Source: Longimicrobiales bacterium
Lineage (GTDB): Bacteria > Gemmatimonadota > Gemmatimonadetes > Longimicrobiales > Gaopeijiaceae
Length of the DNA: 64,000 nt
Direction of reading: 5' to 3'
Assembly: GCA_965219445.1 (NCBI GenBank)
Contig: CBDCNQ010000005.1
Location: 1,600,001-1,664,000 of the forward strand
The translations under genes and the position numbers were made by a program. The notes beneath the pieces are model-generated. The model ran no database searches, was not told the DNA's origin, and saw only the letters and a list, made by a program, of their open reading frames with translations. Positions 12,721-57,829 of the stretch are shown piece by piece (within the stretch, counting starts at the first letter, position 1; every line of letters begins with the position of its first letter).

Positions 12721-12737
12721 GCCAGCCCCATAGAAGG

Positions 12738-30644: not shown

Positions 30645-30757
30645 GCCAGCCCCATAGAAGGGTGTGTAAAAAAAGAGGCGACGTACCTTTCCGCTAGGTA
30701 GTAAGAAGTTAACCAGCGAATCCCGGGTGAGCGCCCGGGGGAAAGGAACGATGCCTC

Positions 30758-37367: not shown

Positions 37368-37944
37368 GCGCCAGACGCGTGGTCAGCGGCTCCGCCATCC
37401 ACACCGGCATGACGCCCCGCGCGACCGCAAGCTCCTCGAGGTCTTCCTCCGAGAGCTTGGGCAGGATCGCGTCGAGGCTGTCTTCGACCTCTTCGGGGCC
37501 GAGCCATGCCAGGGCACGGATCACCACTCCCGCCATCCTGTGCGGAGCCGCCAACTGCCAGCGCGGAGCGTGGCGCAGCTCGACGGGATGCTTGCCGAAG
37601 CGCAATCGCCGACTGCGGCCGGAGGTGAGATAGACCGAGCGGACGGGATTCTGCGTCGTCAAACCAAGCCAGTTGGCCGCGCCGCCTCCGTTCGGGACGA
37701 TCGTCTCGCCCCAGAGCTCCGAGAGCGCCAGGAGTGACTTCTCGGTGCCCGGCGCACACCGCCCCAAGCGGGTCTCGATCGGGCGCATGTAGACCCCTTG
37801 GCGGATCCGCATGAGCCGGCCTGAACGGGCCAGGCGAGAGAGCGCCTGACCCACCGCGGCCCTTTGGCCGAGGTGAAGCAGGGCCGCCGGGCAGATCGGC
37901 GTGGCCTCGGCGTGCTCCATGATGCGCTCGGGCAGGCTCTTCAT
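37360..37944 (-). CDS. DUF6088 / AbiEi-like antitoxin
   Basis: QALSRLARSGRLMRIRQGVY, ANWLGLTTQNP, YLTSGRSR; overlaps AbiEii start. Confidence 0.8.
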   Translation of the reverse strand: MKSLPERIMEHAEATPICPAALLHLGQRAAVGQALSRLARSGRLMRIRQGVYMRPIETRLGRCAPGTEKSLLALSELWGETIVPNGGGAANWLGLTTQNPVRSVYLTSGRSRRLRFGKHPVELRHAPRWQLAAPHRMAGVVIRALAWLGPEEVEDSLDAILPKLSEEDLEELAVARGVMPVWMAEPLTTRLAHG

Positions 37945-38346
37945 GGCTTTCTCTCTCCGCGTCACAAATCGAACCACAAATATAACAGTCGTCCTGTTCG
38001 GAGCGACTCTCGAAGCCCTTGATCCGTTGCCGCGGCAGGCACGGCACGCCGCTCGGCGACCGCCCCGCGCCGCGGCATGTGAAACCTGTCACTTCCGTGT
38101 GGGCGACGCCAAGTCGGCCGTGCCCGGGCCGACCTTCCGGTCGAGCCCTAAGACCCTTGACGGGAACCTCTGGCGAGCGCTGCGGAGGGTGTGTCTGCCA
38201 TGCCACTGGCGGCGGTGTCCAACAGCTCGTGTACCGTACTGGCCATCTCTAGCCGTTACAGGCACTTAGGAGATTTCCTATGAGTTGACTTCCTTGCATG
38301 CGGGTCTTCACCGTTGTGGCCATGAAGACGCGGGAGCAGTACGGGC

Positions 38347-38889
38347 ATGGAGACGCTGGAGCAGCAGTTCGACTCGCGTGTGAGGGTGTTCCTCGGGCGG
38401 ACGGGCCTGAGTCCGACGACGTTCGGCTTGAAGGCGCTGGGCGACCCGAACCTGATGCGCCAGCTCGACGGCGGGCGCTCGCTGTCGCTGAGAACGGCGG
38501 ACCGGGTTCTGGCGTTCGTGGCGGACTACGACCTGGACTCGGGCGGCGCTCGGACTCCGTCCCGAGGCCACCGGCGCCGGAAGCCTTCGTCACGGGCGAG
38601 GAGAACGAGGAGCAGCAGAGCGATGAGTGAACAACCGATCGAACAGAGAACAAATCCGCCGACCCGCTTCCTGCGGCGGCCGGAGGTGACGGCCCGCACG
38701 GGGCTCGGGCGGAGCACGATCAAGGTGCGGATGCGCGAGGGGTGCTTCCCCCGGCCGGTATTGCTGGGCTCGCGCGCCGTGGGCTGGATCGAGGAGGAGG
38801 TGGACGCGTGGATCCGCGAGCGGATCGCGGAAAGCCGGGGCGACGCGGAGGTGCCGCCCACTGACCCAAGGACAAAGGAAGATACATGA
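38347..38889 (+). CDS. Cro-like HTH fused (or in frame) with AlpA-family regulator/excisionase
   Basis: PTTFGLKALGDPNL...; FLRRPEVTARTGLGRST...FPRPVLLGSRAVGW. Confidence 0.75.
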   Translation: METLEQQFDSRVRVFLGRTGLSPTTFGLKALGDPNLMRQLDGGRSLSLRTADRVLAFVADYDLDSGGARTPSRGHRRRKPSSRARRTRSSRAMSEQPIEQRTNPPTRFLRRPEVTARTGLGRSTIKVRMREGCFPRPVLLGSRAVGWIEEEVDAWIRERIAESRGDAEVPPTDPRTKEDT

Positions 38890-39173
38890 AGACGTTCTCG
38901 AGGACGGTGCGAGCGGCTGCGTGGGCCGCGCTGTGGATGCTCATGCCCGGTCAGCTCTGGGCTCAGGGGACGAGCCCGTGGGTGGAGGCGGTGAACGAGC
39001 TGCAGGCGCAGTTCACGGGTCCGATCGCGAGGGGGCTGTCGCTGATCGCGATCGTGGTGGGCGGGCTGATGTTCGCGTTCGGCGAGGGCGGGAGCAAGCG
39101 GACGCTGGCCGGGATCATCTTCGGGCTGGGGATGGCGATGGGCGCGGCGAACTTCCTGGCGTGGCTATTCTGA
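38886..39173 (+). CDS. virB2: TrbC/VirB2 pilin
   Basis: Signal + TGPIARGLSLIAIVVGGLMFAFGE. Confidence 0.85.
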   Translation: MKTFSRTVRAAAWAALWMLMPGQLWAQGTSPWVEAVNELQAQFTGPIARGLSLIAIVVGGLMFAFGEGGSKRTLAGIIFGLGMAMGAANFLAWLF

Positions 39174-39475
39174 TGAGGGGTCTGAGGCGCTGGGCCGGCT
39201 ATGCGGCGCTGAACCGTCCGCTCACGATCCTGGGTGTGGAGCGTAGGGGGTTTCTCCTCGTCGCGACGCTCGGGCTCGCGATGTGGAACGCGACGGCTTC
39301 GCTGGTGACGGGCGGCGTGGTGTTCGCGGTCGGCTTTGGGGCCGGATGGCTGGCCGGCCGCAAGGACCCCGACATGCTCGGCGTGCTACGGGCCGGGACG
39401 CGCTACCCGGCGCGCTTCGACCCGGGCAAGTGGGCCGAAGAGCCGTGGCATCTCGTGATCCGGAGCGGGCGATGA
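39173..39475 (+). CDS. virB3: VirB3 family protein
   Basis: ALNRPLTILGVER...KDP; position between virB2 and virB4. Confidence 0.8.
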   Translation: MRGLRRWAGYAALNRPLTILGVERRGFLLVATLGLAMWNATASLVTGGVVFAVGFGAGWLAGRKDPDMLGVLRAGTRYPARFDPGKWAEEPWHLVIRSGR

Positions 39476-40090
39476 GGATCGCCGCGGAGCTCCGGGACCA
39501 CGAGGCAGCCGGCTCGCTGGCCGAGGAGCTGCCCTACTGGGGTTGGCTCGAGGACGGCCGCACCTGCCTGACCCGCTCGGGCGAGCTGATCGCGGTCGGA
39601 CGTCTGGAGCCTGCGGTGGTGGATGGGCGTTCGCCGGAACAGATCGACCGCGTGCTGGGCCGCTGGCAGCGGCTGCTCTCGGGTTTGGACGCTGACACGC
39701 GCCTCTACTTCTATATGCTGCGCCGGCCAAGTGTGCCCGAGGCCGCGGACGACGACGGTTCCGGCATCGTAGCGGTGTCCCAGCGTAAGCGCGGCGCGTT
39801 TCTCTCGGGCCGCGTGCAGCGGCTCGAGGCCTACCTGGTCTGGTCGCACGATCCGCGGCTACGCACGGTCGCAGACGGGCCCACGTCGGGTAGCGCCTCC
39901 CGGCTCATGCAGTGGTGGAAGCGCCGCCGAGGGGGCGCGCCCACCTACCTGCGGTCCGAGATCGAGGCCGCCGCCGCCCGCTTTCGCTCGACGGTGGACG
40001 CGGGCCGTGCGCTCGTGGAGGAGCACACGCCGATCGAGATGCTCGAGCCCGCCGAAGCCTCGCGGTTTCTCTCCGAGCTGATCAACCGTC
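39472..40090 (+). pseudogene. virB4: VirB4 ATPase, 5' part (interrupted)
   Basis: MRIAAELRD...LPYWGW...LSELINR; joins in frame to 49492 onward. Confidence 0.85.
40080..40090 (+). repeat. att core (integrase-proximal end)
   Basis: GATCAACCGTC. Confidence 0.9.
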
Positions 40091-40193
40091 TGCTACATAT
40101 AGATTCCAATACAATCCATATGTGTCTGATAAGATTCTATAACTATATCTATCACAGTGAGTTATGTAGGACACTCCCGGTTGCACTGTCGCT

Positions 40194-41441
40194 GTGTGTC
40201 CACTATGTTCCCGTATAGAACATACGATATTTTATACGGTGACTCCCGAATTGGATTTGCCCAAACACCGAGGCAGGCGACCGCATAACGCACTCAGCGC
40301 GGCCTTCGTGCGCAGCGCCAAGCCCGGATACTACTGCGATGGGAACGGCCTCTATCTGCGCGTGGACCGATCCGGCGCGCGCCGATGGGAGCAGCGTCTG
40401 CGGATCCAGGGCCGAAACCGCACGCTGGGGCTCGGGGGCTACCAACTGGTATCGCTGGCCGAGGCGCGCGAGAAGGCATTCATGAACCGCAAGATCGCGC
40501 GCTCGGGCGGTGATCCGCGTACCGAGCGGCACAAGGTCCGGGACATGCCCACGTTCGCCGAAGCGGCCGCCCGTGTTCTGGAACAGCTGCGGCCGGGCTG
40601 GCGCAGCCCCAGGCATGCGCAGGACTGGGTCTCCAGCCTGCGCGTCTATGCGTTTCCACAGCTGGGCCATCGTCCGGTTGGCGAGATAACGACAGCCGAC
40701 GTTCTGGCGGTGCTGACACCGATCTGGCACGCCAAGCAGGTGACTGCCCGGCGGGTGCGCCAGCGCATTGGGGCGGTGATGAAGTGGGCGGTGGCGATGG
40801 GGCTTCGGCCGGACAACCCCGCCAGCGATGTGCTCGGTCAAGCGCTTGGCCGACAACGAGCCGTAGTCCGGCACATGCGCGCGTTGCATCACTCGAAGGT
40901 CGCGGGCGCGATGGAGACGGTGCGGAAGTCGCACGCTTACCCGGCCACGAAACTCGCCTTCGAGTTCCTGGTGTTGACGGCGGCCCGCTCGGGAGAGGTT
41001 CGCTTGGCGCACTGGGATGAAATCGACCTGGAGGCTCGAGAGTGGACGGTTCCCGCCGAACGCACGAAGGCCCATCGCCCCCACAGGGTGCCGCTGTCCG
41101 GGCGCGCTGTGGAGATACTGAGCGAGGCGCGGACGCTCGGCGGCGGCAGCGGTCTCGTTTTCCCGTCGCCGGAGGGCCGCGCATCTGCCCACAGCAGACT
41201 CTCCACGCTGCTCCGAGACCTGGGTATCGCGGCCGTGCCGCACGGCTTCCGGTCGAGCTTCAGGGACTGGTGCGGCGAGTGTTCCAACGCACCGCGTGAA
41301 GTCGCCGAGGCCGCGTTGGCGCATGCGGTTGGCAACAAGGTGGAAGCGGCTTACGCGCGTTCCGACCTGTTCGAGCGCAGGCGCGTCCTGATGGACAATT
41401 GGGCTACGTATCTGAGTAAGGAGCCTACGGCAGATCACTGA
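40194..41441 (+). CDS. P4-like tyrosine integrase with arm-binding domain (true start probably ~40251-40257)
   Basis: DGNGLYLRV, TAARSGEVR, HGFRSSFRDW, LAH, AAYARSD. Confidence 0.95.
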   Translation: MCPLCSRIEHTIFYTVTPELDLPKHRGRRPHNALSAAFVRSAKPGYYCDGNGLYLRVDRSGARRWEQRLRIQGRNRTLGLGGYQLVSLAEAREKAFMNRKIARSGGDPRTERHKVRDMPTFAEAAARVLEQLRPGWRSPRHAQDWVSSLRVYAFPQLGHRPVGEITTADVLAVLTPIWHAKQVTARRVRQRIGAVMKWAVAMGLRPDNPASDVLGQALGRQRAVVRHMRALHHSKVAGAMETVRKSHAYPATKLAFEFLVLTAARSGEVRLAHWDEIDLEAREWTVPAERTKAHRPHRVPLSGRAVEILSEARTLGGGSGLVFPSPEGRASAHSRLSTLLRDLGIAAVPHGFRSSFRDWCGECSNAPREVAEAALAHAVGNKVEAAYARSDLFERRRVLMDNWATYLSKEPTADH

Positions 41442-41572
41442 TCGTTCCGATCCGACCATGCAGCCGAAGCGTCTGTTTGAACCACCGCGCATCGTCTAAC
41501 CCGCATCAGGTTGGACGAGAGTCCGAGTCAGCGGCAGGCGTGAGCCAGGCCGTGGGTAGGGCCTCCGCCCCC

Positions 41573-42296
41573 ATGCGGGTCCAGAAGTACATCTCCCGGG
41601 CAGGGGCGGCGTCGCGCCGTCAGGCCGAAGTCCTGATGCGCGATGGCCGGATCACGGTAAACGGCGTGCCAGTCACCGTCATGGGGACGCTCGTGACCCC
41701 GGGCGTCGACACCGTGATGCTGGATGGGCGTGTGGTGGAAGTCGCGCCGCGGCGGTGGCTCGTCTTCCACAAGCCGCGTGGAGTTCTCTGCACCCGTGGC
41801 GATCCTCACGGCGGCGAGACGATCTACGCCCTCCGCCCCAACTCGGCACGATCGCTACGCTACGTGGGTCGACTCGATCGCGATACTTCGGGGCTGCTGC
41901 TCCTCACCAACGACGGGGACATGGGGTTCGCGTTGGCTCATCCCAGCGGGGGCGTCGAGATGGTGGCCGGGCAGATAACAGCCCCGGGGGCTGCGGTCGC
42001 TGAGGCATGGCATCGAGCTGGAAGACGGCTTTGCGCGGCCCAGGTCGGTCCGCAAGGTCCGATTCGGCGCAGAGGATTGGGGTGTGAGGCTGGTCCTGGC
42101 GGAAGGCCGAAAGCGGGAGGTGCGGCGGCTGCTGAAGGCGGTGGGGCATCCGGTGGTGGAACTCGTACGCACGCGCTTCGGCCCCTTCCGTCTGGGAAAA
42201 CTGAAGCCCGGCACCTGGAGGCCGGCGCACACATCGGAACTTGCGGAGGCGCGCGCCCTGATCCGGCGAGGGGGCCGCGGCCGGTCGCGTCGCTAG
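41573..42296 (+). pseudogene. RluB/RsuA-family pseudouridine synthase, frameshifted with small deletion near 41960-41995
   Basis: MRVQKYISRAGAASRR, HKPRG, VGRLDRDTSGLLLLTNDG; EGRKREVRR in a different frame. Confidence 0.85.
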
Positions 42297-42306
42297 AGGA
42301 GATGGA

Positions 42307-42943
42307 ATGGCTGAGCTGACAATCGAGGTGGTCGAGCATCCGCTCATCGAACACAAGCTGTCCTTTGTGCGGGACCGGAGCACCGGGCAGAAGCGGATGC
42401 GGGAACTCGTCGAGGAGATCACGCTGCTGATGACCTTCCAGGCCCTGCGAGGACTGAGGGGCGAAGAGGTGGCCTTCTCGACACCACTCGAAGAGACGCG
42501 GGCGCGTCGTATCCGCGAAGACCGGATCGTCGTCGTCCCGATCCTGAGGGCGGGGCTGGGCATGGTCGAGGGAGTGCTGCGGCTGATTCCGGGAGCGCGG
42601 GTGGGCCATCTGGGCTTCTATCGGAACGAAGAGACGCTGCAGCCCGTGCGCTACTACGGAAAACTGCCCCCCGACGCCGAACGGTGCAGCTTTCTGCTGG
42701 TGGATCCGATGCTTGGAACCGGTGGCACTGCCTGTGCCTCTATCGCGGATCTGAAGGCACGCGGGGCGCACGACATCGCACTGATGTGTCTGATTGCGGC
42801 GCCCCGAGGGAGCCGGCCGCCTGGCTATGGAGCACCCTGACGTGCCCATATTCGCTGCGGCACTCGACCGCAGGCTCAACAAGCGTGGCTACATCCTTCC
42901 AGGCCTCGGGGACGGGGGCGACCGTCTGTTCGGCACCCTGTAG
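42307..42943 (+). pseudogene. upp: Uracil phosphoribosyltransferase, frameshift near 42805
   Basis: [35 protein letters not shown] in another frame. Confidence 0.88.
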
Positions 42944-42975
42944 CAGGCGGCTCACCTTTCGGTTACCGTTAAGAT

Positions 42976-43049
42976 GGGCCCATAGCTCAGGCGGTTAGAG
43001 CAGCGGACTCATAATCCGACGGTCGGGGGTTCAAGTCTCTCTGGGCCCA
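42976..43049 (+). tRNA. tRNA with CAT anticodon, most likely tRNA-Ile2; no encoded CCA
   Basis: GGGCCCA/TGGGCCC acceptor, TAGCTCAG D-arm, CTCATAA loop, GTTCAAGT T-loop; G.A mismatch at the top of the anticodon stem. Confidence 0.88.
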
Positions 43050-43152
43050 TGAGTGCGCGGGCTTTGTGGCCTTCGAGCACTTGACGACCGAGGAAAAGCG
43101 GCTTCAATTCTCGTAGGTTCTCGCGCTTCTCAAACTCTGAAGGCGGCGGCAC

Positions 43153-43515
43153 TTGTTCTTCCGGCAATCGAGCAGATGGGACCTGCGCCGGGTGGGCATT
43201 TCGTGCATCGCCACGCTTCAGATCGGCGTTTCGGCCAGCCTGAGTCCCGCCGATGCGATCCTCGACATCGAGGGATTCGGGTCACCGGTTCATATCGAAT
43301 CGCCGGAAAATGCAGATTGTGCCGTCGATCACGGGCACTTCTTCTGCCAAGTGGTGCGATCGCTCTCCAAGGCCGGGGTCTCGGAAGGGATCACGCTTTC
43401 CCAGGTAGGCGAGCCTCCCCTCCGACTACCCGAGGCGAACCGAGACGCTGACCGAGTCCCCATCGCGCGGGTCCTGGTCGGTTCGGTCTTTCCCAGGGCT
43501 CCGCCCACCGCTTGA
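43153..43515 (+). CDS. His/Cys-rich leader protein ending in RAPP (DUF2946-like)
   Basis: HIESPENADCAVDHGHFFC...FPRAPPTA* directly upstream of a TonB-dependent receptor. Confidence 0.65.
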   Translation: MFFRQSSRWDLRRVGISCIATLQIGVSASLSPADAILDIEGFGSPVHIESPENADCAVDHGHFFCQVVRSLSKAGVSEGITLSQVGEPPLRLPEANRDADRVPIARVLVGSVFPRAPPTA

Positions 43516-43599
43516 CGCGCCTCGGGGCGCCCGCGCCCCGCTCCTTCCGTCCTTTCACGGTCTGGTCACCCTATCGCGGGTGGCCCGTATCCGTGAACC

Positions 43600-45864
43600 G
43601 TGCGTCCAAAGCGAATCCGCCATCCATTGAAGAAAACGCTGCTCGACTTGCTCCGTACCGGCGTCGTCATAACCATCGCCGGACTCGCCGCGCTATCGGC
43701 ACCCGCATCATCGCAGGAGCCGGAGCACGAAGGCGAGATCGAGGGGGTGGTGCGCGACGCCGAGACGGGAGCCCCTCTCGCAGGGGGGCTCGTTTCGGTC
43801 ATCGGCACGGGAACGAGGGCCGTGACACACGGCGACGGGACCTTTCACCTGACCGGGATCGCCGACGGGAGCTACTCGCTACGAGTCGACCGGTTGGGGT
43901 ACCGCGGCTCTACCACCGAGGTGACGGCGGGGGACGAATCCGCGGTAGTCGTAATCGAATTGGTGACGTCTCCGATTGCACTCCAGGGAATGGTGGTCAC
44001 CGCGACCCTTACCGAGCGGGGTGCCGCGGAAGCGCTGCGGCCCGTGAGCGTCATGGCTGGCGAAGAGCTGCAACGCCGGATGGAAGCGACTATCGCGGCA
44101 ACCCTGGCCGCCATGCCGGGGATGGCCGTCACGAGCATGGGACCGGCAGTTTCGCAACCGGTTGTCCGCGGGTTGAGCGGGGACAGGGTGCTCTTGCTGG
44201 AGGACGGGACAGCTGTGGGGGATGCCTCCAACTCCGGCTCGGACCACACTACCGGGCTCGACCCGGCGTCCGCACGACGGATCGAGGTGGTGCGGGGCCC
44301 GGGGGCCCTCCTCTACGGGGGTAACGCCCTTGGCGGGGTCATTAACGTCATCCGCGATGAGATCCCCTCGGCGGTCCCGCATCACGTGACGGGCTCGGCA
44401 ACGCTTCAGACCCAGACGGTGACCGGCTCGCTGAGTGGCAGCGCGACGGCCGTTTTCGCGGTCGCCGAGCACGTGCCTTTGCGCGTGGAGGGGGCGGTGC
44501 GGACGGGTGGAGACCTCAAGACACCGCTGGGCACACTGCCCAACACCGATGGCGATCTGTGGAGTGGCGGAGTCGGCACGGCCTACGTGGCGGAGTGGGG
44601 TCACCTGGGGGCGTCTTTCCGTGGCTATCGAAACCACTACGGCATCCCGGGCGGTTTCGTGGGGGGACACGAGGAAGGGGTGCGTATCGAGATGGAGCGC
44701 GCCGCTTCGAAATTCCGGACTTTGGTCGACGATCCCGTCGGTCTCTTCCAGGACATCCGTTTCGACGCGACCCACACCTGGTATCGACACCGTGAACTGG
44801 AGCCACCGGGAATCCTCGGAACCCTCTACGAGAGGCAGACCGCCAGTGGGGAACTCCTGGGCCGACACGGAGAATTGGGACCCTTCACAGCAGGAGCGGT
44901 GGGCGGTCGTTTTTCCTGGGAGGACTTCGGGTACGGCGGAAGCCTGTACACGCCGGACACGCGTCGCAGCAAGGCGTCTCTGTACTTTCTGGAAGAGGTC
45001 GACCTGGGATCTGTCCAGATCGAATGGGGGCTACGCTACGACTGGACCGGAGCCAATCCGGTGGAGAGTGATCGGGATTCGGACATCGGCAAGATCCGTA
45101 ACCGCACGTTCAATTCGTTGTCGGGTTCGCTCGGTGTGCTGTACACCGCCAGCTCGGGTCTGACGCTCGGGGTCAGTCTTACCCGTGCGTTCCGGACACC
45201 CGACATCAACGAACTCTACTCGGAGGGGCCGCATCTGGCGGCCTACTCTTTCGAAGTCGGAAACCCGTCCCTGGAGGGCGAGATCGGTAGAGGGCTCGAC
45301 GTCTTCCTCCGCTTCGAGTCCGACCGGGTAAGGGCCGAAGTGACCGGCTTCTACAACGACATCGAGGACTACGTCTACGGAGAGGACACGGGCCGCCTGA
45401 GCCGGGTGCTCCTCCCCATCTATCAGTTCCGGGGCAACGACGCTGTCTTCAGCGGTTTCGAAGCCGCCGCGGACCTGGCCGTGGGGCGCGGAATGGCCCT
45501 GGAGGCGGTTGCGTCGTCGGTGAAGGGGAGTCTGAAGGCGACCGAGCAACCCCTCCCACTCGTACCTCCGCTCAAAGGGCATTTGGCTCTGAAGTACGAG
45601 CGGCCGCTGTGGTTCATCCGCGCGGAGACCGAGATGGCGAGCCGCCAGGACCGAATCGGCGAGTTCGAGATGCCGACCGGCGGCTACACGGTCCTGAATC
45701 TCTCAGCCGGTGCGAGGGTCACTCTGGGAGGTCGTCTGAATGTGCTCACGGTGAGCCTCGACAACGCCACGGACGCGGAATACCGCAACCACCTCTCCCG
45801 GGTAAAGGAGATCATGCCCGAGGCCGGGAGGGGCCTGAGTGTGACATACCGAGTCGTGTTCTAG
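43600..45864 (+). CDS. TonB-dependent receptor, probably metal uptake (ZnuD-like)
   Basis: CarboxypepD-like N-domain, PVVRGLSGDRV, RIEVVRGPGALLYG, ELYSEGPHLA, C-terminal F. Confidence 0.92.
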   Translation: MRPKRIRHPLKKTLLDLLRTGVVITIAGLAALSAPASSQEPEHEGEIEGVVRDAETGAPLAGGLVSVIGTGTRAVTHGDGTFHLTGIADGSYSLRVDRLGYRGSTTEVTAGDESAVVVIELVTSPIALQGMVVTATLTERGAAEALRPVSVMAGEELQRRMEATIAATLAAMPGMAVTSMGPAVSQPVVRGLSGDRVLLLEDGTAVGDASNSGSDHTTGLDPASARRIEVVRGPGALLYGGNALGGVINVIRDEIPSAVPHHVTGSATLQTQTVTGSLSGSATAVFAVAEHVPLRVEGAVRTGGDLKTPLGTLPNTDGDLWSGGVGTAYVAEWGHLGASFRGYRNHYGIPGGFVGGHEEGVRIEMERAASKFRTLVDDPVGLFQDIRFDATHTWYRHRELEPPGILGTLYERQTASGELLGRHGELGPFTAGAVGGRFSWEDFGYGGSLYTPDTRRSKASLYFLEEVDLGSVQIEWGLRYDWTGANPVESDRDSDIGKIRNRTFNSLSGSLGVLYTASSGLTLGVSLTRAFRTPDINELYSEGPHLAAYSFEVGNPSLEGEIGRGLDVFLRFESDRVRAEVTGFYNDIEDYVYGEDTGRLSRVLLPIYQFRGNDAVFSGFEAAADLAVGRGMALEAVASSVKGSLKATEQPLPLVPPLKGHLALKYERPLWFIRAETEMASRQDRIGEFEMPTGGYTVLNLSAGARVTLGGRLNVLTVSLDNATDAEYRNHLSRVKEIMPEAGRGLSVTYRVVF

Positions 45865-45935
45865 GAATGTTCCGGCGCACGACTTCGACTGACCGACACA
45901 ATGAAAAACTCAAGAGCCATCGAAGGAGAATACAG

Positions 45936-46409
45936 ATGAACACGAAGAGCTACAGAAGCCCGCTGGCCGCATTGGCGGCCATTCTCGCCCTGACGCTTGC
46001 CGGCTGCAGCGAGTCGATGACCGAGGTCGAAGAGGAACATGCGGAACCCGAGGGAGTCGAGCTGGTCATGGGCGGCCTCGTGATCGCCACCTACGATGGG
46101 GAGACTCAGAGATGGGTCGGCGAGATGGAGGTCGATGCAGGTGAGGAGACGCCCCACATCGCGGTGCGATTTGTCGATCATGACGGCGATGCGATCACTC
46201 TCGGCCAGGAGCTCTACCTGGAGGTGGATATCGAAGATGAATCGATTGCCGAGTTCGAACAGGATACGCCGGGAGAGTTCGGTGGCCATCTACACGGCGT
46301 CGCGGAGGGTGAAACGGGAGTGACTTTCAAGCTCATGCATGGTACCATCGGGTCCGGACATCCCGACTTCGTGACGACTCCCGTCCACGCGCATGTGCAT
46401 GGGTCATGA
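45936..46409 (+). CDS. His/acidic-rich lipoprotein
   Basis: RBS AAGGAG, lipobox LAGC, EEEHAE, GHPDF, HAHVH. Confidence 0.8.
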   Translation: MNTKSYRSPLAALAAILALTLAGCSESMTEVEEEHAEPEGVELVMGGLVIATYDGETQRWVGEMEVDAGEETPHIAVRFVDHDGDAITLGQELYLEVDIEDESIAEFEQDTPGEFGGHLHGVAEGETGVTFKLMHGTIGSGHPDFVTTPVHAHVHGS

Positions 46410-46784
46410 ATCCTGGCAGCCCGTGGAAGAAACCCTCTCGGCATTCGACCGGCGATGCATCCGGGCCGGGACGCTGCGTTCTGCGTTGCTTTTCGGGCGA
46501 ATAGCGCTGCTCCTCGCCCTTCAAAGCGCCTTGCCGGGCCGTAGGATCGCCCAAGATCGACGAACTCCCGTCCCTGAGGGGTACGGGTAGGGTGGAAAGC
46601 GGGGCGCGGGAGAGGTCGCCGCCATCGCCAAGGCGAACGGACTCGCCCTCGCCGCCCGCGAGACTGGTGGCAACGAGGCGGAGAAGCTTGCCCGCAACGG
46701 CCCGGTGGACGCTGTTCCGGGCGGTGCCCGGAGGTGCGTGACGGAGGTCCGTCAGCGCTGGCTTGAGCCACTCTAAGGTGGTCA

Positions 46785-46865
46785 AGCCAGCCTACCCTTT
46801 GGGGCCACGCTTCGCGGGTCCCCGGCAGGGGCTGGCGAGGGTGGCTCCGCCCCCTTCGATCCCCT
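46785..46865 (+). promoter_or_regulatory. oriT-like motif A (copy 1)
   Basis: 53 bp identical to 58207-58259, which precedes a mobC-like gene; related to 62274-62334(-). Confidence 0.5.
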
Positions 46866-47100
46866 GGACGCCCGCGCTCCGGCAGGCCATGGCGCGCACG
46901 CGGCCGGCAGGTCGCGCGCATCGGCGGCAACCTCAACCACCTCGGGGCAGTTTCGGGCTTGGTCGAGCGCCGACGCCGACCTCACTGGGACGACTTGCCG
47001 AGCCACCTAGCTGGTGAAAAGCCGTGACCGGCGGCCGGATTCGTTGATACGCCGCGCTCGCAGCGGCGCTTGATGGCCTTCCCGCTAGGGATTGCTGGAG

Positions 47101-47347
47101 GGGAGCGACCCCCGGCGGAGGGTGGCATGGGTGTGCACATGCCAACCCTCCGCGATGCCGATCGAGGCATCGAATCCGGGGGGTCGCTCCCTTCTTCGGC
47201 CGAAAGCTCCGGAGCGGCGTCGCCGCTCCGGCGGCCGTGCCGCAACTGTAAGACAGGCAGCCACATACGGGAGCGCCGGCGCGCACATGAAAATGGCGTT
47301 TCGGTGCACATGCACCCCGTTGTCTGATGTGCACTCGCCGATCAGCA
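47101..47347 (-). repeat. Inverted near-copy of the host element's structured intergenic region 57041-57289
   Basis: Direct comparison, e.g. TGCTGATCGGCGAGTGCACATCAGACAACGGGGTGCATGTGCACCGAAACGCCATTT shared. Confidence 0.9.
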
Positions 47348-47399
47348 CCGACGCTCGCCGTCCGGGGGTCAAGATCCGCCCCCCGGAAGCCGACTCGAA

Positions 47400-47968
47400 C
47401 GCCATGGCGGCATCTCTATGCTGACCCCCGAACAGGTCCACTTCGGTCACGCCGATCAAGTCATCGCCCGCAGGAAGGCTGTGCTCCGCGAGGCTTGGGC
47501 CGCTCATCCCGAGCGCTTCGTCTCCGGTCAACCGAAGCCTCAACCACTCCCGGAGGCCGTCTGGATCAATCCTCCAAGCCTCCCCCTCACTACACAGGAG
47601 ATTGCTCTCTAATTGATTCCCCCCGAGTGTCTCACAACCGTTGACAGGTTCCGTTGCGCCATGTCGTCAGGTGCGACGAGTACAAGCCCTCCCGCCGTAG
47701 GAGTCGGCCGACCTCTCCGAACTCCGTGCAGCGGTCCGCTTCTTCGACGATCCGCAGCTTGTACGACGGAGCGAACCGGCGGCGGAGCGGCTTAACCACG
47801 ACCTCCGGGTCCGGAGCAGCTGCCGCGCTTCGCTTACCCTCCCAGGTTAGTGGGGCGATTCCATTCTCTTCCATTCTCTCTCGGTGTCCCAGCATCCTCG
47901 ATTTCTCTGCCTTCGCCCTACTCTAATTCTTTACTCGTTCCGTGTCTCACCTAAGTTGGCAGAGAGGG
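47400..47968. mobile_element. IS3/IS481-like remnants: transposase C-terminus + right end (+), abutting inverted left end + N-terminus (-)
   Basis: LTPEQVHFG...AHPERF...VWINPP; RRRFAPSYKLRIVEEAD...LRREGLYSSHL; TGTCTCAC ends at 47628 and 47943. Confidence 0.7.
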
Positions 47969-47969
47969 T

Positions 47970-48164
47970 TACGTTGTTGAAGGACATGTGCCCGCGGATG
48001 ACATCAAAAGCATGCTCCGGGACAGGCCGACCATGGTGGGGTTGGCGATACCGGGTATGATTGTCGGGACGCCCGGAATGGAGGTGCCCGGCCAGCTGGC
48101 TCGACCTTATCAGGTTCTCGCGTTCGACGAACAGGGTAGGACGGCCGTCTACACTAGCCGTTGA
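47970..48164 (+). pseudogene. DUF411-like metal-binding protein, 3' fragment
   Basis: YVVEGHVPADDI...GLAIPGMIVGTPGME. Confidence 0.75.
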
Positions 48165-48256
48165 GGGTCAGATTCTTAACGCCTCTTGGGGACTTTTCCT
48201 TCAATGGTAGGACGGACTCGTGACCTTTAGGTGAACACTCTGCGGAAGGAGCCTCC

Positions 48257-49126
48257 ATGTTTGAGAAAGTGCTAGTGTCTATGGACCTATCGCCGGCCAC
48301 CGAGGCCCTCGTGTCTGCACTTCCTGATATGCGAGAGCTCGGTACTCGAGAGTTTCTTCTTGTCCACGCGGCAAAGCCTCTTCGCGGTCCGACATCCGAG
48401 TCGCTGGCCCGAGTGGAGGAGTACCGTGGCCGCTTGAACGGCTTGGCGGACCGCCTGAAGGAGGCTGGATTTTCGGTGAGCGTCCGTGTTCCGACCGGTG
48501 CACCGGCCGAAGAAGTGGCGAAGGCAGTAAAAGCCAAGGATCCCGATGTCGTTCTCGTGGGGTCCCGGAGTCACACCCTGATCCGGGAGGCCTTCATCGG
48601 TAGCGTGGCATGGGACATCGTGCGAAGTGCCGGCCGTCCTGTCCTTCTCCAAAAGATCGAACCGAGCCGAGGAGACCCGGAAGCGGCGTTGGAGAGTCCT
48701 GGCACGGGCCTTCCCAAGCACGTGGTTTTTCCTACCGACTTCTCCGATACGGCGAAAAGGGCCCGCCCGTGGCTTCTCGGACTCGTCGGAGATGGCGCGC
48801 CCTCTTTCTCACTTCTCCACGTGATGCCCACGGTGGCAAAGGAGGGAAGGAAATCGGCCGAGAGCCAGTTGGACGAGCTCGCTCAAGAGCTTCGTGAGCA
48901 AGGCGCTACAGACGTAAGCTACCGCGTTCCAATCGGCACGCCGTACGAAGAGATCCTGAAGGCGGGTGGCAACAGGGCCGATGCGTTCGTTGTGATGGGC
49001 ACCCACGGACGGGGGTTGCTCCCCGGGGTAGTGCTAGGGAGCGTGGGCCGACAAGTGGTTCGTCACGCCTCTGCTCGGGTTCTCCTCATCCCAGGGGAGG
49101 AGGAGTCGGTGGTCAGATGGCGTTAG
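48257..49126 (+). CDS. Universal stress protein (tandem USP)
   Basis: VLVSMDLS, FIGSVA, VFPTDFS, MGTHGRG, LGSVG. Confidence 0.92.
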   Translation: MFEKVLVSMDLSPATEALVSALPDMRELGTREFLLVHAAKPLRGPTSESLARVEEYRGRLNGLADRLKEAGFSVSVRVPTGAPAEEVAKAVKAKDPDVVLVGSRSHTLIREAFIGSVAWDIVRSAGRPVLLQKIEPSRGDPEAALESPGTGLPKHVVFPTDFSDTAKRARPWLLGLVGDGAPSFSLLHVMPTVAKEGRKSAESQLDELAQELREQGATDVSYRVPIGTPYEEILKAGGNRADAFVVMGTHGRGLLPGVVLGSVGRQVVRHASARVLLIPGEEESVVRWR

Positions 49127-49480
49127 CGCTCGGGCGCGTGGCGATCCGGGGCCGACACGTCCGTTCAGTAAGCGTTCGGCGGGGTGACTAGAGGCGCCTC
49201 GCCAGTACGTTCCCGAACGCCCCCGCCGTCGCGACGAGATTCCAATTTTCGGGATCGCCACGTCGTCATCTGCCGGGTCTTCCTCAGCCCCGCGGGACGC
49301 CCGCGACGCCCAAGGAAGAACCCGTCACGGGTTCCGCGAACGTACCGTAAGCTCCCGTGTAATCGCCCGCCAATTATACGGGATCACATACGATAGAAAC
49401 GAGTCGGACCAAAAACTACGACATCCATAAATAACTATAGGTCATATACTTATGACGACATAGGGACAGGATAGACAGTA

Positions 49481-49491
49481 GATCAACCGTC
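49481..49491 (+). repeat. att core (distal end)
   Basis: GATCAACCGTC. Confidence 0.9.
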
Positions 49492-51317
49492 CGGGCACGG
49501 TGTGGGACGGCGCGACGGGGAGCGGTATGAACTGGCGGCTCGCCCTCTCGGAGCTCGAGGCGGAGCGTTCGCACCTGCGCCTCGACGGCGAGCCGGTGAT
49601 CCTGTACTCGCTCCTGTCCCCGCCCGGCCAAGCCTACGCCAACCTGCTCCGGGAGCTCTACTGCCTGGACGCGGTGATGACGGTCTCGCTCGAGTGGCGG
49701 CCCTGGGCGATGGAGGCGGCCCGGCGCCGGATCCGTGGCACGCAGCGGCACTACTTCGCGCGCCGTTACTCGATGATGGCGCACGTGCAGGAGACGGAGG
49801 GCACGGCCGCCGCGATGGTCGACTCGGCCGCGGCCACGGAGTCGGACCGTCTGGGCGAGGCGCTGGTCGAGCTGGAAGCGGACGGGGTGAGCTACGGCGA
49901 GGCGACGCTGACCGTGGCGCTCCACGGCGAGCTGGGAAGCATCGAGCGGCTGGACGGCGACCTGCGTCGGCTGTTCGCCGCGCACGACGCGAAGGTGATC
50001 CGGGAGGGCTACGGCCAGCTGCCGGCCTGGTTCTCCCGGCTGCCGGCCCAGCCGCGTGGGCGGCAGGTGCGGAAGGTGTTCGTATCGGCCGGAGTGGCCG
50101 CGTGCCTGGCGCCGCTCTTCGGGCCGCCCAAGGGCCGGGCTAAGAGCAAACACCTTGGCCGTGAGTCGCTCGCGGTCTTGGAGACCCCGTGGCGCACGGC
50201 GTACCACTACGACCTGTTCGCCGGTGATGTGGGCCACACGTTGATGCTCGGCGCGACGGGCTCGGGCAAGAGCTTCACACTGAACTTCCTCCTGGTCGAA
50301 GCTCTCAGGTACGACCCGCGCGTCCTGATTCTGGACTTGGGCGGCTCGTACCGCTGGCTGACCCGGTTTCTCGGGGGCCGCTACCTGGAGCTCTCGCCAG
50401 GCGAGGCGGAGCCGACGCTCCGGCTTCAGCCGTTCGCGCTCCCGGCGGGCACGCGGACGTTCCAGTTCCTGACGGGCTGGGTGCTACGGCTGCTGAAGCT
50501 CGGCGGTTGGGAAGCGAGCGGAGCGGATACGAGCGAGATCCGGGCGCGCATTGAGGATCTGTATGCGTTCGAGCCGGAGCGGCGGACGCTGAGCGTCCTG
50601 GCAAGCTCGCTTCCGTCCGCGACGTGGCCGGCCTGGAGCCGCTGGACCCAAGGCGGCGCGTGGGGCGGCTACTTCGACAACCCGGCCGTCGGAGCGCCGG
50701 ATCTCGAGTTCGCCGACTGGCAGGTGATCGATCTCGCCGGGGCGGTCGAGCATCCGGATCTCTGCGACGCGGCGCTCTCCTACCTGCTCGAGCGCATGCG
50801 CCTCGAGGTCGAGGACCCGTCCGAGGCGGCGCGCCTGAAGTTGATGGTCGTGGACGAGGCCTGGCGCTACCTGCAGGACCCGGCGGTGCTGAGCTACCTG
50901 GCCGAGGCGGCGAAGACGTGGCGGAAGAAGAACGCCGCGCTGATCCTCGCCACGCAGTCCGCCGTCGACGTGACGGCAACGCCCGGCGCTGCGGCGCTCC
51001 TCGAGTCGATCCCGACCAAGCTGTTCCTCGCGAACCCGGAGCTCCCCGACGAGGTCGGGGCGCTGTTCCGGCTGAACGACTCGGAGCTGGCGCAGGTCCG
51101 GGGCCTGATCCCCAAACGCGAGCTCTACCTCCGCCGCCCGGACGGGGCGGCGGTGCTCCGGCTCGAGGTCGATCCGGAGAGCTACTGGCTCTACACCTCG
51201 TCCGCATTGGACGCCGAGGAGAGGGCCCGTGCCGTCGAGCGCCACGGGCTCGCCCGGGCCATCGAGGTTCTCGCGAGCCGAGACGATCCCACCCCCACCC
51301 CCAACGCAAGGAGCTGA
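49492..51317 (+). pseudogene. virB4: VirB4 ATPase, 3' part (interrupted)
   Basis: GHTLMLGATGSGKS, MVVDEAW, TWRKKNA, ATQS. Confidence 0.9.
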
Positions 51318-51323
51318 TACGCC

Positions 51324-52187
51324 ATGCGACCACCGACTACACCCATCGTTCTAACCGCGCTTCTCTTGGCTGCGCTCCCGGCCGGGGCTACCGCCCAGCA
51401 GGAGGACGACCAAGCGTTCCTCCGGGTGCCGGTCCCGGAGGAGGGGGAGGATCGGATCCACCGGCTCCGCACCCAAGTCCGTCACACGACGGTGATCGTG
51501 CTCCCCGCCGGTGAGAACATCCTGGATTTCGTGGTCGGCGACTCGGAGTACTGGCATCTGACGGGCGCCGCGAACGTCGCGTTCCTGAAGCCCCTCTCGG
51601 CGGACGCGGCGACGAATATCGCGCTCGTCTGCGAGTCCGGGCGCATCTACTCGTTCCTGGTGGCTGAGCAGAGCGACGGGCCGCCCCATCTGGTCGTTCG
51701 CGTAGAGTCTGGAGCAGAGGCGGCGCGGCTCTCCGGAGGCAGCGGCCGTCCCGCGTTCGTCGCGCGTAGCGAGGTCGCGGCCTATCAGCAGATGGCCGCC
51801 GAGGCGGCCGAGGCGGCTCGCAGCGCCCGGGAGGCGGCCGAGGCCGGCATCCTGGAGGCCCGGTCGCAGGCTGAGTCGGCGATCGAGGCGTTCCGTGCCG
51901 GCTATCCGGAGCGTCTCGCGTTCGAGTACCGGCTCGACGAGGACGCGGCCGACCGGCCGTTCCTGGTCGAGGCGATGTGGCACGACGGGCAGTTCACCTA
52001 CCTGCGCTCGCATGCCCAGGAGTCGCCGGCCCTCTATGAGCTCCGGGACGGCGAACCGGCGCTCGTCGCCTACGACCTCAGTGAGGACGGCCTCTACATC
52101 GCTCGACACGTGTTGGGCGACGGATGGCTCCAGATCGGCGACAAGCGGGCTGCCTGGCGGTTCACGCCGCGGGAAGCGCTCCGATGA
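51324..52187 (+). CDS. virB9: TrbG/VirB9 family protein
   Basis: TTVIVLPAGE, FLKP, TN, WHDGQFTY. Confidence 0.8.
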   Translation: MRPPTTPIVLTALLLAALPAGATAQQEDDQAFLRVPVPEEGEDRIHRLRTQVRHTTVIVLPAGENILDFVVGDSEYWHLTGAANVAFLKPLSADAATNIALVCESGRIYSFLVAEQSDGPPHLVVRVESGAEAARLSGGSGRPAFVARSEVAAYQQMAAEAAEAARSAREAAEAGILEARSQAESAIEAFRAGYPERLAFEYRLDEDAADRPFLVEAMWHDGQFTYLRSHAQESPALYELRDGEPALVAYDLSEDGLYIARHVLGDGWLQIGDKRAAWRFTPREALR

Positions 52188-53452
52188 GCCGCTGGAAGCA
52201 GTGGGTCCGGCCCCCGGAAGGCGCGCTGCCGGGCGGCATCGTGACGAAGGCCGGCGTGGTGTTGATCGCCGTGCTCGTCGGTGGACTCCTGTTCTCGTGG
52301 GCGATGACGGGTCCCGAGGAAGATGCGCCCACTCTCGTAGCCCTGCCCGAGGCGCAGGCGGTCGACGACGGGATGGGCCGATCGCTCGAAGGCCGTATTC
52401 GCGCCGAGGCCGAGCGGCAGACTCTGGAGGCCGCCGCCCGGGCGCGCGCCGAGCTCGAGCGCCGGCAGGCTGCGGCCGCCGAAGAGATGGCTCGGCTCCA
52501 GACCGAGTCGGAGACGCCGAACACCGCAGCCTTGATCCCAGGCGTGAGCGCGGCCGAGTCGGAGCTTAGGGAGGCGCTTCGCCTGGAGGAGCTGGAGCGA
52601 AGAACCCGCTCGCTCCGTGCCCTTCCCGTGGCTCAGTCGTACCGGGATCCCAACGCGACCGCGGAGTCGTCCGAAGCCGGCACCGGCGATGCGGCCGACG
52701 CGGATGTGGCGCTCCTCGAGAACACGGTCCAAGCGGCGCTCGCCTCTTTCGAGCAGTCGGTCGGGGCGCTCGAGAACGAATTGGAAGCGGAGTTGGCGGC
52801 CGGGCAGCTCCTCTCCGGCTCCCCGGGACCTGCCGCACCGCCAAGCTCTCCTCGCACCCCCGGCACGGCTGAGCCCGGCCGGAGCGTGCAACCCGCCGAC
52901 CCGCCGGGCTGGGAGCGGATCCACGAGGGCTCGTTCCTCGAAGGGGTGCTCCTCACGCAGCTCTCGGGCGATTTCCCGGGACCGGTGCTCGCCATGGTCT
53001 CGGTCCCGTTCTATTCGGCCGACCGCCAGCGGGTCCTGATCCCGCGCGGCACGCGCGTCGTCGGCACGGCCCGGGCCGTTCAGGACCCGGACCAGAGCCG
53101 GCTCGCCGTCGCGTTCCACCGGCTGCTGCTCCCCGACGGCAGCTGGATCGACCTCGAGTTCACCGGCCTGAACCAGGCGGGCGAGGGCGCCCTTCGGGAC
53201 CAGGTCGATCGCCACTACTTCAGCACGTTCGCGGCCGCCGGAGCCATCGGCGTCGTAAGCGGACTCGCCCTGGCCGGCGGTTCGCCGTTCGGCCTGAGGA
53301 CGGGCGTCGGCCAAGGCCTCGGCCAGAGCGCGACCTCGGTTCTCGACCGGTTCCTGAACCGGCTACCCACGATCACGATCCGCGCCGGCCATCGCCTGCG
53401 CATCTGGTTCACGTCCGACGTCCTGGTCCCCAGGTCCGGGACACGGCAATGA
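52184..53452 (+). CDS. virB10: TrbI/VirB10 family protein
   Basis: VLIPRGTRVVG, GEGALRDQVDRHY, PTITIRAG. Confidence 0.88.
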   Translation: MSRWKQWVRPPEGALPGGIVTKAGVVLIAVLVGGLLFSWAMTGPEEDAPTLVALPEAQAVDDGMGRSLEGRIRAEAERQTLEAAARARAELERRQAAAAEEMARLQTESETPNTAALIPGVSAAESELREALRLEELERRTRSLRALPVAQSYRDPNATAESSEAGTGDAADADVALLENTVQAALASFEQSVGALENELEAELAAGQLLSGSPGPAAPPSSPRTPGTAEPGRSVQPADPPGWERIHEGSFLEGVLLTQLSGDFPGPVLAMVSVPFYSADRQRVLIPRGTRVVGTARAVQDPDQSRLAVAFHRLLLPDGSWIDLEFTGLNQAGEGALRDQVDRHYFSTFAAAGAIGVVSGLALAGGSPFGLRTGVGQGLGQSATSVLDRFLNRLPTITIRAGHRLRIWFTSDVLVPRSGTRQ

Positions 53453-54378
53453 CAAACAAGGAGCTCATCATGCGTCACCGCAGCCTTACCACCGTCCTCT
53501 TGGTCTCGGTCCTGATGCTCGCGAGCGCTGGGCCGGCCAACGCCCTCTTCGACATCGGCGGCGTGATTCAGCGTGCCCAGATGATCGCGAACCAAGTGAC
53601 CCAGCTTGCGAACCAGCTCAGCCAGATGCGGACGATGACCCGCCAGCTCACCGAGCTCGAGGAGCAGCTCGACCACATGAAGGACGTCGCGCGCGGCGAG
53701 GTGGACGCTTTGGTCGAACCGTTCGCGGAGCTCGCGGCCGGATCCATCGGCCTCGTCGGCAACGACCTCGACTGGGGCTCCGAGTTCAGCGGCGCGGCCG
53801 GCGAGCTGGTCGACGCGGTGCGTGACATGGGGAGCGGAAGCTCGTTCACCGACGTCTGGCGGAGCGCCCAAGGGGTGGCCGACCAGGTGAGCGAGGCGGA
53901 CATCCTCGAGCTGTTCCGTAACCGCCCGGCCGAGGCGTCGTCGCGCGCGGTGGAGGACTACCGCCAGGCCAAGGAGACCGCCGACCGGCAGAGGGTGCTC
54001 GACTACGCGATGATGGACGCCGCGGCCTCGCTCGCATCGACCGTCGAGAGCGCGCAGAGCTCGTTCGACGACCTGACCGCGAATGGGAACCTGTCCAACA
54101 CGGCACTCCAGCAGGCGCAGGTCGCGGCCGCGCTGACCCAGGGCCGGATCAACGCCGCCGTGGCGCAGGTGCTCGCCTATCAGGCGGTCGAGCAGGCGAA
54201 CCGGATGCAGCAGGCCGAGATCGACCGGCTCGAGCGGCTCGCCGAGTGGAGGGACGCGCGCCTCCGTACGAACGCGATGGCCGATGCGATGCGCACGGCC
54301 GCGTTCCAGAACCGCGACCGGCTCCGGGAGGGGCTCCTGTTCAAGGTCCCGTCGTTCTATATGGGCGGCCAAGTTTAG
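53449..54378 (+). CDS. TrbJ/VirB5-like secreted coiled-coil protein
   Basis: Signal peptide, Q-rich helical segment; position before virB6. Confidence 0.6.
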   Translation: MTNKELIMRHRSLTTVLLVSVLMLASAGPANALFDIGGVIQRAQMIANQVTQLANQLSQMRTMTRQLTELEEQLDHMKDVARGEVDALVEPFAELAAGSIGLVGNDLDWGSEFSGAAGELVDAVRDMGSGSSFTDVWRSAQGVADQVSEADILELFRNRPAEASSRAVEDYRQAKETADRQRVLDYAMMDAAASLASTVESAQSSFDDLTANGNLSNTALQQAQVAAALTQGRINAAVAQVLAYQAVEQANRMQQAEIDRLERLAEWRDARLRTNAMADAMRTAAFQNRDRLREGLLFKVPSFYMGGQV

Positions 54379-54396
54379 GCCCCGGGAGCGACCGTC

Positions 54397-55407
54397 ATGC
54401 AACTTCCTCCCCCGCAGTCGATCGATCCGAACGTCCCGGCCCAGATCCCGGCGGATCAGCTCCAGGACTTCAAGGGGTTCCTCGACGTCGTGCTAGATAC
54501 CGTGGTCGGCGGCGCCGCGCCCGACGTGCTGACGCTCGGCCACCAGCTGTGGGGCGGTCTCGCGGCGATCGTCGTCGCATGGAGCGGCCTCAAGATCGCG
54601 TTCAGCGGAACCTTCGAGCCCTGGGCCCTCGTGCGTGTCGTGCTCGGGATCGCGATCCCCCGGACGCTGCTCCATTACTACAGCGTCCCGATCCCGGGCG
54701 TGGGCTTCACGTTTCCGGCCATGGTGGCGGCCGGAGGGATCTGGCTCCAGAACCTGTTCATCTCCGACGTCGTGTCCGTCGGCTACACGGAGATGACCGC
54801 GCTGGTGCAGGCGTTCGCCGCACGGCTCGGCGCGGCATGGTCGGGCGGGAGCCTGATGACCCTCATGACCGAGGGCGTGAGCGTGTTCTTCTCGTCCCTC
54901 GTCGCGCTGATGATGGGCGTGCCGCTCGTGCTCGGCCTCGTCGCGCTCTTCTGCCTGACCTACGCGCAGGTGATCTGGGCGCAGGTGGCGCTCGCGATCG
55001 TGATCCTGCTCGGCCCCGTGTTCATCCCCTGGCTGCTGTTCGAGCCGCTCGCGTTCCTGTTCTGGGGATGGTTCCGCACGCTCATCGTCTACACACTCTA
55101 CGGCGTCGTGGCGGGAGCCATTCTCCGTGTGTTCATGGGCGTGGGCATGGGCTACGTCACGACCTACACCGGCGCCTTGATGGGCACCGGCTCCTCCGAC
55201 CCCGCGGAGCTGGGGCTGTGGGTCGTCGTCCTCCTACCGCTCGTCGTCTCCGGCCTGATGGCCGGCATGAAGGTGGGCGAGCTCGCCGCGATGCTCGTCT
55301 CAGGCTCCGGATCCGTCGGATCGGGGTTCATGGCGCTCGTGGTGCGCGGCGGCGGACGCCTCAGCGCTGCCGCGAACCCGGCCCGCCCCCCAGTCCCCGG
55401 AGGCTGA
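54397..55407 (+). CDS. virB6: TrbL/VirB6 family protein
   Basis: Polytopic, LLGPVFIPW...LFWGW. Confidence 0.82.
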   Translation: MQLPPPQSIDPNVPAQIPADQLQDFKGFLDVVLDTVVGGAAPDVLTLGHQLWGGLAAIVVAWSGLKIAFSGTFEPWALVRVVLGIAIPRTLLHYYSVPIPGVGFTFPAMVAAGGIWLQNLFISDVVSVGYTEMTALVQAFAARLGAAWSGGSLMTLMTEGVSVFFSSLVALMMGVPLVLGLVALFCLTYAQVIWAQVALAIVILLGPVFIPWLLFEPLAFLFWGWFRTLIVYTLYGVVAGAILRVFMGVGMGYVTTYTGALMGTGSSDPAELGLWVVVLLPLVVSGLMAGMKVGELAAMLVSGSGSVGSGFMALVVRGGGRLSAAANPARPPVPGG

Positions 55408-55418
55408 AGGAGACATCC

Positions 55419-57019: not shown

Positions 57020-57040
57020 ACGCGGATCGGCGAGGGTCGT

Positions 57041-57289: not shown

Positions 57290-57323
57290 ATCCATGGATC
57301 CCTACGGGAAGGTTGTCAGAGCG

Positions 57324-57828: not shown

Positions 57829-57829
57829 C

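Follow-up and report, generated by a model that had tools for sequence, protein, structure and literature searches.

A relaxase-less integrative island inside virB4 of a conjugative element in a Longimicrobiales genome

VirB4 is essential for the function of type IV secretion systems, and an integrase-bearing insert in the middle of its gene raises the question of how such an element comes to reside there, and what its presence means for the conjugative element that it interrupts. The locus lies in a 64,000-nucleotide window (C5:1,600,001-1,664,000) of a Longimicrobiales genome labelled G000 (4.56 Mb, 5 contigs, 63% GC, 92% complete); G-numbers designate genomes, C-numbers the contigs of G000, and L-numbers loci. 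The interrupted gene belongs to an integrative and conjugative element (ICE) with a VirB/D4-type backbone, itself a member of a probable Longimicrobiales ICE family. In the explanation that we hold to be rather probable, and favour over both a regulated gate and passive accretion, the insert is a relaxase-less integrative island, a helper-embedded hitchhiker on this one ICE family, and its gating of conjugation is mostly a by-product.

The split gene and the island within it

The insert measures 9,401 bp, cuts virB4 after codon 206, and carries at both ends the 11-bp repeat GATCAACCGTC. The following features define the split:

39472-40090 (+): 5' part of virB4, codons 1-206 (tblastn to intact 814-aa copies)
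40080-40090 (+): attL core, with a predicted 7-bp overlap at 40082-40088 (sequence comparison)
49481-49491 (+): attR core (sequence comparison)
49492-51317 (+): 3' part of virB4 with the ATPase domain (Pfam scan), 100% identical to the intact copy at C5:937k

A first-pass annotation had described virB4 as split by about 9.4 kb between direct repeats, with a continuous frame once the insert is removed, and both statements hold. Joining 39472-40090 to 49492-51317 yields 814 codons, which is the length of all three intact virB4 open reading frames (ORFs) of G000, with no internal stop, and the empty junction aligns at 100% and without gaps to the intact virB4 at C5:~938,956. An intact copy matches the VirB4/TrbE models, but below their cut-offs. 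On its own, the 11-mer is not significant, about two copies being expected and 13 found across G000. However, because ten of these 13 lie at this virB4 site or at an element end, and because the junction recurs in other genomes, it can be assigned attB status; judged by sequence comparison, virB4 codon 206 is a true attB, site-specific and recurrent.

The virB4 5' half of the window is only 91% identical to an intact ICE copy that is otherwise identical at about 100%. The divergence belongs to a patch of about 1.1 kb (38940-40040, from the virB2 3' end to the virB4 5' half), in which identity to the ICE at C5:937k is 84-99% per 100 bp, both flanks being at about 100%; we read this patch next to attL as recombination between ICE alleles.

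The island itself is organised as follows:

40091-40250 (+): AT-rich left att arm, conserved among 12 aligned elements and carrying paired 7-bp arm-type repeats at 40211-40239
40239-41441 (+): P4-type tyrosine integrase, 400 aa (PF13356, PF22022 and PF00589); start probably TTG at 40251
41573-43050 (+): cargo, rluB-like gene, upp and tRNA-Met, a captured chromosomal block (Pfam scan; 99.4% common to the element of G056)
43600-46409 (+): cargo, TonB-dependent receptor, for which a ZnuD-like model scores best but below cut-off, and a His-containing lipoprotein-like gene
46781-47075 (+): module A, mob-like remnant and oriT (origin of transfer) candidate, whose first ~100 bp recur upstream of mobC/nikA in other islands
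47077-47410 (-): module B, inverted ICE spacer copy and oriT candidate, 89-91% identical to window 56979-57312
47400-47968 (-): IS3-family remnant, internally deleted, its two ends matching insertion sequence (IS) copies 1 kb apart (IS proteins HTH_Tnp_1/rve)
48257-49126 (+): cargo, universal stress protein (PF00582)
49300-49480 (+): right att arm, with arm-type repeats at 49375 and 49387 (sequence comparison)

The integrase, earlier described as intact-looking and adjacent to one repeat, harbours the three P4-type domains (Arm-DNA-bind_3, Phage_int_M and Phage_integrase), all above Pfam cut-offs, together with R250, K277, H335, R338, H362 and Y372, which we take to be the catalytic R-K-H-R-H-Y residues. 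Its arm-binding domain matches the structures 3jtz/3ju0 and, weakly in sequence, CP4-like and HPI-type arm domains. The predicted att anatomy comprises a 7-bp overlap, flanking core repeats and distal arm repeats. The gene is co-oriented with virB4 and starts about 150 bp behind attL; a scan found no terminator-like site in 37900-41700, and no sigma-70 site was found in the left arm, the sigma-70 scan being uninformative for this phylum. With regard to its start (window 40240-40253), most virB4-targeting integrases have TTG without AGGA, and the related integrases at virB11 and at virB4 codon 683, described below, have AGGA followed by ATG; a TTG start without AGGA may lower integrase translation.

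As stated in the first-pass annotation, the insert supplies no replacement virB4 half. The Pfam scan of its ORFs revealed neither a relaxase nor a pore gene, only the mob-like remnant, and no primase was found among the ORFs scanned. An AlpA profile built from G000 has no match in the window island and matches 2 out of 10 elements. The island thus has its own integrase and flanking direct repeats and no VirB4 or mating pair formation genes, as in integrative and mobilisable elements (IMEs), but lacks the relaxase of canonical IMEs. Module B, of which G000 contains 28 copies longer than 150 bp, derives from the ICE spacer between cl2 and virD4, directly beside a relaxase candidate. The cargo shows two frameshifts, at 41982 (rluB) and 42802 (upp), each a single base in a homopolymer; since the extra bases are absent from other sequencing runs (3/4 for rluB, 2/4 for upp) and lie in homopolymers, they are likely assembly errors. 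The chromosomal rluB beside tRNA-Met on C2 is only 57% identical to the captured one, and no second upp was found in the 92% complete G000.

Recurrence of the site and sister elements

When 314 genomes of the same family were searched with a pattern for the site, 31 of them showed matches, 59 in total. Nine are of the occupied type, in six genomes (two in G000, three in G109, one each in G056, G058, G237 and G312), and in each the virB4 5' half, the arm and the integrase could be confirmed. Another 41 are of the empty type, including one attR and 16 that were checked and are virB4, and the other nine are of neither type; the variants of G108, G262, G264, G268 and G269 and most empty-type matches stayed outside this checking. 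A variant in G103 and pattern matches in G187, G200 and G141 were set aside, as no ICE or element matches occur there. A seventh genome, G129, has an attR with a virB4 3' half; the seven genomes fall in five genera. Two more attR plus virB4 3' halves lie elsewhere in G000. In an order-wide sample the arm was found in 4 of 301 genomes, all four in the same family. Named relatives with 83-97% identical integrases are metagenome-assembled genomes of Longimicrobiales, and plasmid records hold relatives under 60% identity only.

Within the clade of integrases at least 93% identical, nine of the 12 left junctions lie at virB4 codon 206 and the other three at look-alike cores in other DNA. The proposal of a P4-type integrase with a virB4 attB is supported by this count, the flanks of its homologues within this clade being for the most part split virB4 genes. 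The two-ended elements at the site measure 4.3, 4.3, 9.4, 13.1 and 13.5 kb and have integrase and arms in common, with varied cargo; that of G056, from another genus, has 2.2 kb of the window cargo at 99.4%. One look-alike core has left a trace in G000 itself. A PD40-repeat gene is cut there, its 5' part being fused to a virB4 5' half (C4:1,055,198, L013) and its 3' part to an element arm (C5:250,602, L003), and both parts are contiguous in comparison with paralogues. This is the remnant expected from integrase-mediated exchange at the core, and the split gene is likely a chromosome rearrangement made by this integrase.

The virB4 site is one of several in the ICE. In G000, G058 and G237, virB11 is occupied at codon ~242 by a sister integrase of 82% identity, and an 86% identical one lies in reverse at virB4 codon ~683 (G058). 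Arms are conserved among these sister elements, whereas the predicted 7-bp overlaps differ (TCAACCG, TCGCTCA, CGCCACG), and of the 41 fixed differences that separate virB4-targeting from virB11-targeting integrases, 37 fall beyond residue 200. More distant P4-type integrases split virD4, virB8, ardC, cl2 and the ICE's own integrase gene, and also abut breaks in virB5 and cl5. All ten two-ended cases tested have direct repeats of 7-19 bp and rejoin without gaps to intact ICE genes. We regard this as a radiation of putative helper-embedded satellites within one ICE family, more than one element. Single ICEs with two satellites are found at L047 (G109) and L060 (G058), in virB4 plus virB8 or at two virB4 sites. 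The virB11 element of L001 carries a C-5 methylase and Vsr.

A FastTree phylogeny of 91 integrases (seven duplicate loci, integrases from outside G000 below 50% identity and all matches shorter than 950 bp being left out) groups them by target: virB4 codon 206 (support 99), virB11 codon 242 (99), virD4 codon 530 (100) and cl2 codon 160 (100). The ICE-targeting clades are interspersed with integrases that have no assignable target, and the tree does not support a single ICE-tropic clade. In G000, 20 of the 36 near-full P4-type integrases have an ICE-gene match within 450 bp upstream; ICE matches cover 3.8% of the genome, but mobile DNA clusters, so that there is no clean null for this figure. 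P4-like integrases usually target tRNA or tmRNA genes or gene ends, which they restore. The integrase of the island shares with those of the CP4 and HPI type the arm-binding, central and catalytic domains, but not the usual target: its insertion lies mid-virB4, and none of the 36 integrases in G000 lies within 1 kb of a tRNA or tmRNA gene.

The mobile-element load of G000 is extreme. Its near-full P4-type integrases number at least 36 and its virB4 pieces, of one ICE family, about nine, with a heavy concentration on C5. Upstream of the second virB4 copy, L010:6796-18157 forms a defence-rich island with two ThsB-like TIR genes, PLD and IrrE/beta protein.

The host element and the competing readings

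The transfer operon of the host ICE runs from 38347 to 57881 in the order alpA-virB2-virB3-virB4-virB9-virB10-(virB5 position)-virB6-virB8-cl2-virD4. Its remaining parts, and a second element copy in the window, are:

38347-38889 (+): alpA-like gene at the head of the operon (PF05930, E 6.5e-17)
38886-39475 (+): virB2 and virB3 (PF04956, PF05101)
51324-56087 (+): virB9, virB10, gene at the virB5 position (no family match), virB6 and virB8 (Pfam scan)
56084-57019 (+): cl2, conserved ICE gene, weak MOBC-like relaxase candidate (modelled structure with a winged helix plus a restriction-endonuclease-like domain)
57249-57881 (+): truncated virD4, codons 1-211 of 706 (comparison with intact copies)
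62425-63801 (-): second attL and integrase copy (96.5% aa) in another virB4, with no attR adjacent (sequence comparison)

The second element copy carries Sel1-repeat genes as cargo (59892-61166, -). Elsewhere in the window, 11126-14586 and 29050-32002 are two near-identical repeats of about 3 kb, which probably represent a pair of IS elements; one of them contains an internal duplication of 508 bp.

In the mechanism that we propose, the predicted attB of the P4-type integrase is a fixed core of 7 bp at codon 206 of virB4. The integrated island silences the virB4 copy that it occupies, and precise excision, presumably as a circle, would restore it. The island likely travels through the transfer machinery of its host ICE or of another ICE copy on a borrowed oriT, a role that modules A and B could fill, and the ICE alpA-like product is a candidate excisionase that would act on it in trans. 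The presence of an ICE spacer copy, module B, inside the island supports the hitchhiker explanation. With regard to the relaxase, cl2 encodes 311 aa and has 2,575 homologues among 8,000 scored, in no Pfam or NCBIfam family, only in unnamed Atlas clusters, and with no Foldseek match at E<=0.001. The best structural match of its model is SdaI, with a middling score (Z 7.5-7.6, rmsd 3.5-3.8 over 116-117 residues), and MOBC relaxases are described as related to restriction endonucleases (PMC6499999). The assignment of cl2 as the relaxase and of module B as the oriT is thus no more than a lead.

The first-pass annotation had gone further and proposed an excision-gated switch, in which the ICE builds a mating pore only once the island has left. 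The part of this idea concerning virB4 itself stands, in that there is no replacement half and precise excision would restore the frame. The coupling to transfer fares less well in G000. Two-thirds of virD4 are missing from the host ICE, and neither virB11 nor the ICE integrase gene follows the truncated copy; with the virD4 stop at codon 211 and these genes missing, excision would not restore self-transfer in cis. In addition, G000 has three stop-free virB4 genes, which could substitute in trans, and a whole virB2-virB11 module at C5:1,051-1,066 kb. Given these intact virB4 copies and the existing defects of the host ICE, gating in G000 is probably a by-product.

A regulated gate is the stronger of the rival readings, although we consider it unlikely as the main explanation. 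Induction of the ICE operon would provide AlpA and read-through into the integrase gene, the island would excise, and virB4 would be restored with the satellite circle present as the pore is built; in cells with a single ICE, this is compatible with the hitchhiker explanation. The position of the integrase gene close behind attL, in the operon's orientation and with no terminator-like site between, fits this scheme, as does the alpA gene, which stands first in the ICE operon but does not occur in the window island and most other elements. In G237, moreover, the virB2-virB11/virD4 module is complete apart from the break that the island makes. The same logic has been shown for islands in prophages (PMC10111431) and proposed for streptococcal IMEs (PMC5357655). 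However, five of the six genomes with an occupied site have a stop-free virB4 elsewhere, and the host module is otherwise broken in four of the five two-ended cases. Sister elements occur in both orientations, and some targets (ardC, the ICE integrase gene) are not needed for the pore. Excision of nested IMEs went undetected in S. suis (PMC7168690), and the circle junction that the first-pass annotation suggested looking for was not found in our contig-level searches. In its most ambitious form, which is likewise doubtful, the gate would be a conjugative equivalent of the helper-embedded islands of prophages: P4-type helper-embedded conjugative satellites would have radiated into almost all backbone genes of a single ICE family in Gemmatimonadota, with near-identical integrases retargeted to orthogonal 7-bp cores, and operon read-through plus ICE AlpA would trigger their excision, so that the pore forms only after the passengers circularise.

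Passive accretion, which we judge improbable, would see in ICE genes nothing but abundant, cost-free landing pads, the elements spreading inside ICE DNA or by homologous recombination, with no mobilisation by the helper, before decaying. The numerous virB4 pieces and ICE remnants of G000, the off-target and one-ended copies, the mosaic virB4 5' half and the lack of a relaxase in the island speak for it. It accounts poorly for an intact integrase, for cargo that varies among elements of one site and so implies that they integrated independently or were actively remodelled, for repeated retargeting to new ICE sites with arms unchanged, and for the ICE spacer copy kept in many islands. An assembly artefact of a repeat-rich genome bin, suggested by the many near-identical ICE copies and the two homopolymer-type cargo frameshifts, is scarcely credible given identical junctions in six other assemblies and the presence of cargo and arms in independent sequencing runs.

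Several observations weigh against the hitchhiker explanation itself. Three of the 12 left junctions of the integrase clade are off-target, and several copies are one-ended or rearranged, so that many may be immobile. The 91% identity of the virB4 5' half suggests that the elements may also spread by homologous recombination. Both the oriT and the relaxase are weakly assigned, the best Z score of the cl2 model being 7.5-7.6. Most relatives at 60-69% identity in Vicinamibacterales have no recognisable ICE gene at their flanks, whose translations were judged by eye. A 22-base circle-junction pattern gave seven matches in metagenome contigs, none with att arms or integrase, and these matches are chance. 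Likewise, no circle joint is among those listed for the Logan contigs of seven runs, in one comparison 15 of 115 joints; as contigs also drop rare forms, this weak negative does not argue for absence. An empty-site loose end appeared in runs X9 and X3, with intact ICE copies as its possible source.

Relation to known nested elements

The idea of excision-gated conjugation is not in itself new, having been proposed in 2017 for IMEs in virD4/traG. Coluzzi et al. (PMC5357655) described, inside the traG/virD4, maff2 and snf2 genes of Tn5252-type ICEs, 12 IMEs with serine integrases, which in their proposal are excised when conjugation is induced, so that the module is restored; a 2017 review of IMEs (PMC5704250) repeats the idea as untested, and in S. 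suis the excision of two nested IMEs was undetected (PMC7168690). Up to four nested IMEs have been reported in Faecalibacterium ICEs (PMC12084326). Like the Tn5252-nested IMEs, the elements described here insert site-specifically inside conserved ICE genes without replacing them, at several sites per gene and in decayed hosts. Unlike them, with their serine integrases, relaxases and Gram-positive hosts, they have a P4-type tyrosine integrase, no relaxase, a diderm VirB/D4 host, and targets that include virB4, virB11 and virB8. In the literature searched on nested elements, supplementary target lists aside, no virB4 or virB11 attB of a tyrosine integrase came up, in agreement with the first-pass annotation, which knew of no P4-like integrase family with a virB4 attB.

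Helper-embedded phage-inducible chromosomal islands (HE-PICIs; PMC10111431) follow the same design within late genes of prophages, and their excision has been measured; a term search of the main text of that paper found no mention of conjugation or ICEs. They share with the present elements integrase subclades that follow helper-gene sites, the absence of replacement, off-target events, truncated helpers and multiple satellites per helper. Their helper is, however, a lambdoid prophage, and they encode AlpA, with its gene next to int, and replication genes, whereas the present helper is an ICE, whose window island lacks both. The window island works like a nested IME or a HE-PICI but is a member of neither group.

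Like iOriT islands and the mobilisable genomic islands of Vibrio (see PMC5704250), the window island combines an integrase and cargo with a candidate oriT resembling that of the helper, and has no relaxase or pore genes; unlike these, which are described as integrating in host chromosomal loci, it resides inside the helper, and its oriT is only a candidate. The iOriTs are presented as relaxase-less islands (bioRxiv 10.64898/2026.01.13.699239).

The locus also offers one reason why chromosomal ICEs may seem to annotation tools to lack virB4. The three integrases that are 82-86% identical, with the same arms and different 7-bp cores, constitute a natural series for the study of target-site change, and the excision-gating hypothesis of 2017, so far untested, becomes testable with a minimal system of integrase, two 200-bp arms and the ICE AlpA. 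With regard to the biology of these elements, the principle of a satellite inside its helper, represented by streptococcal serine-integrase IMEs and the HE-PICIs of phages, would extend to tyrosine integrases, to core ATPases of the conjugative pore and to a diderm phylum.

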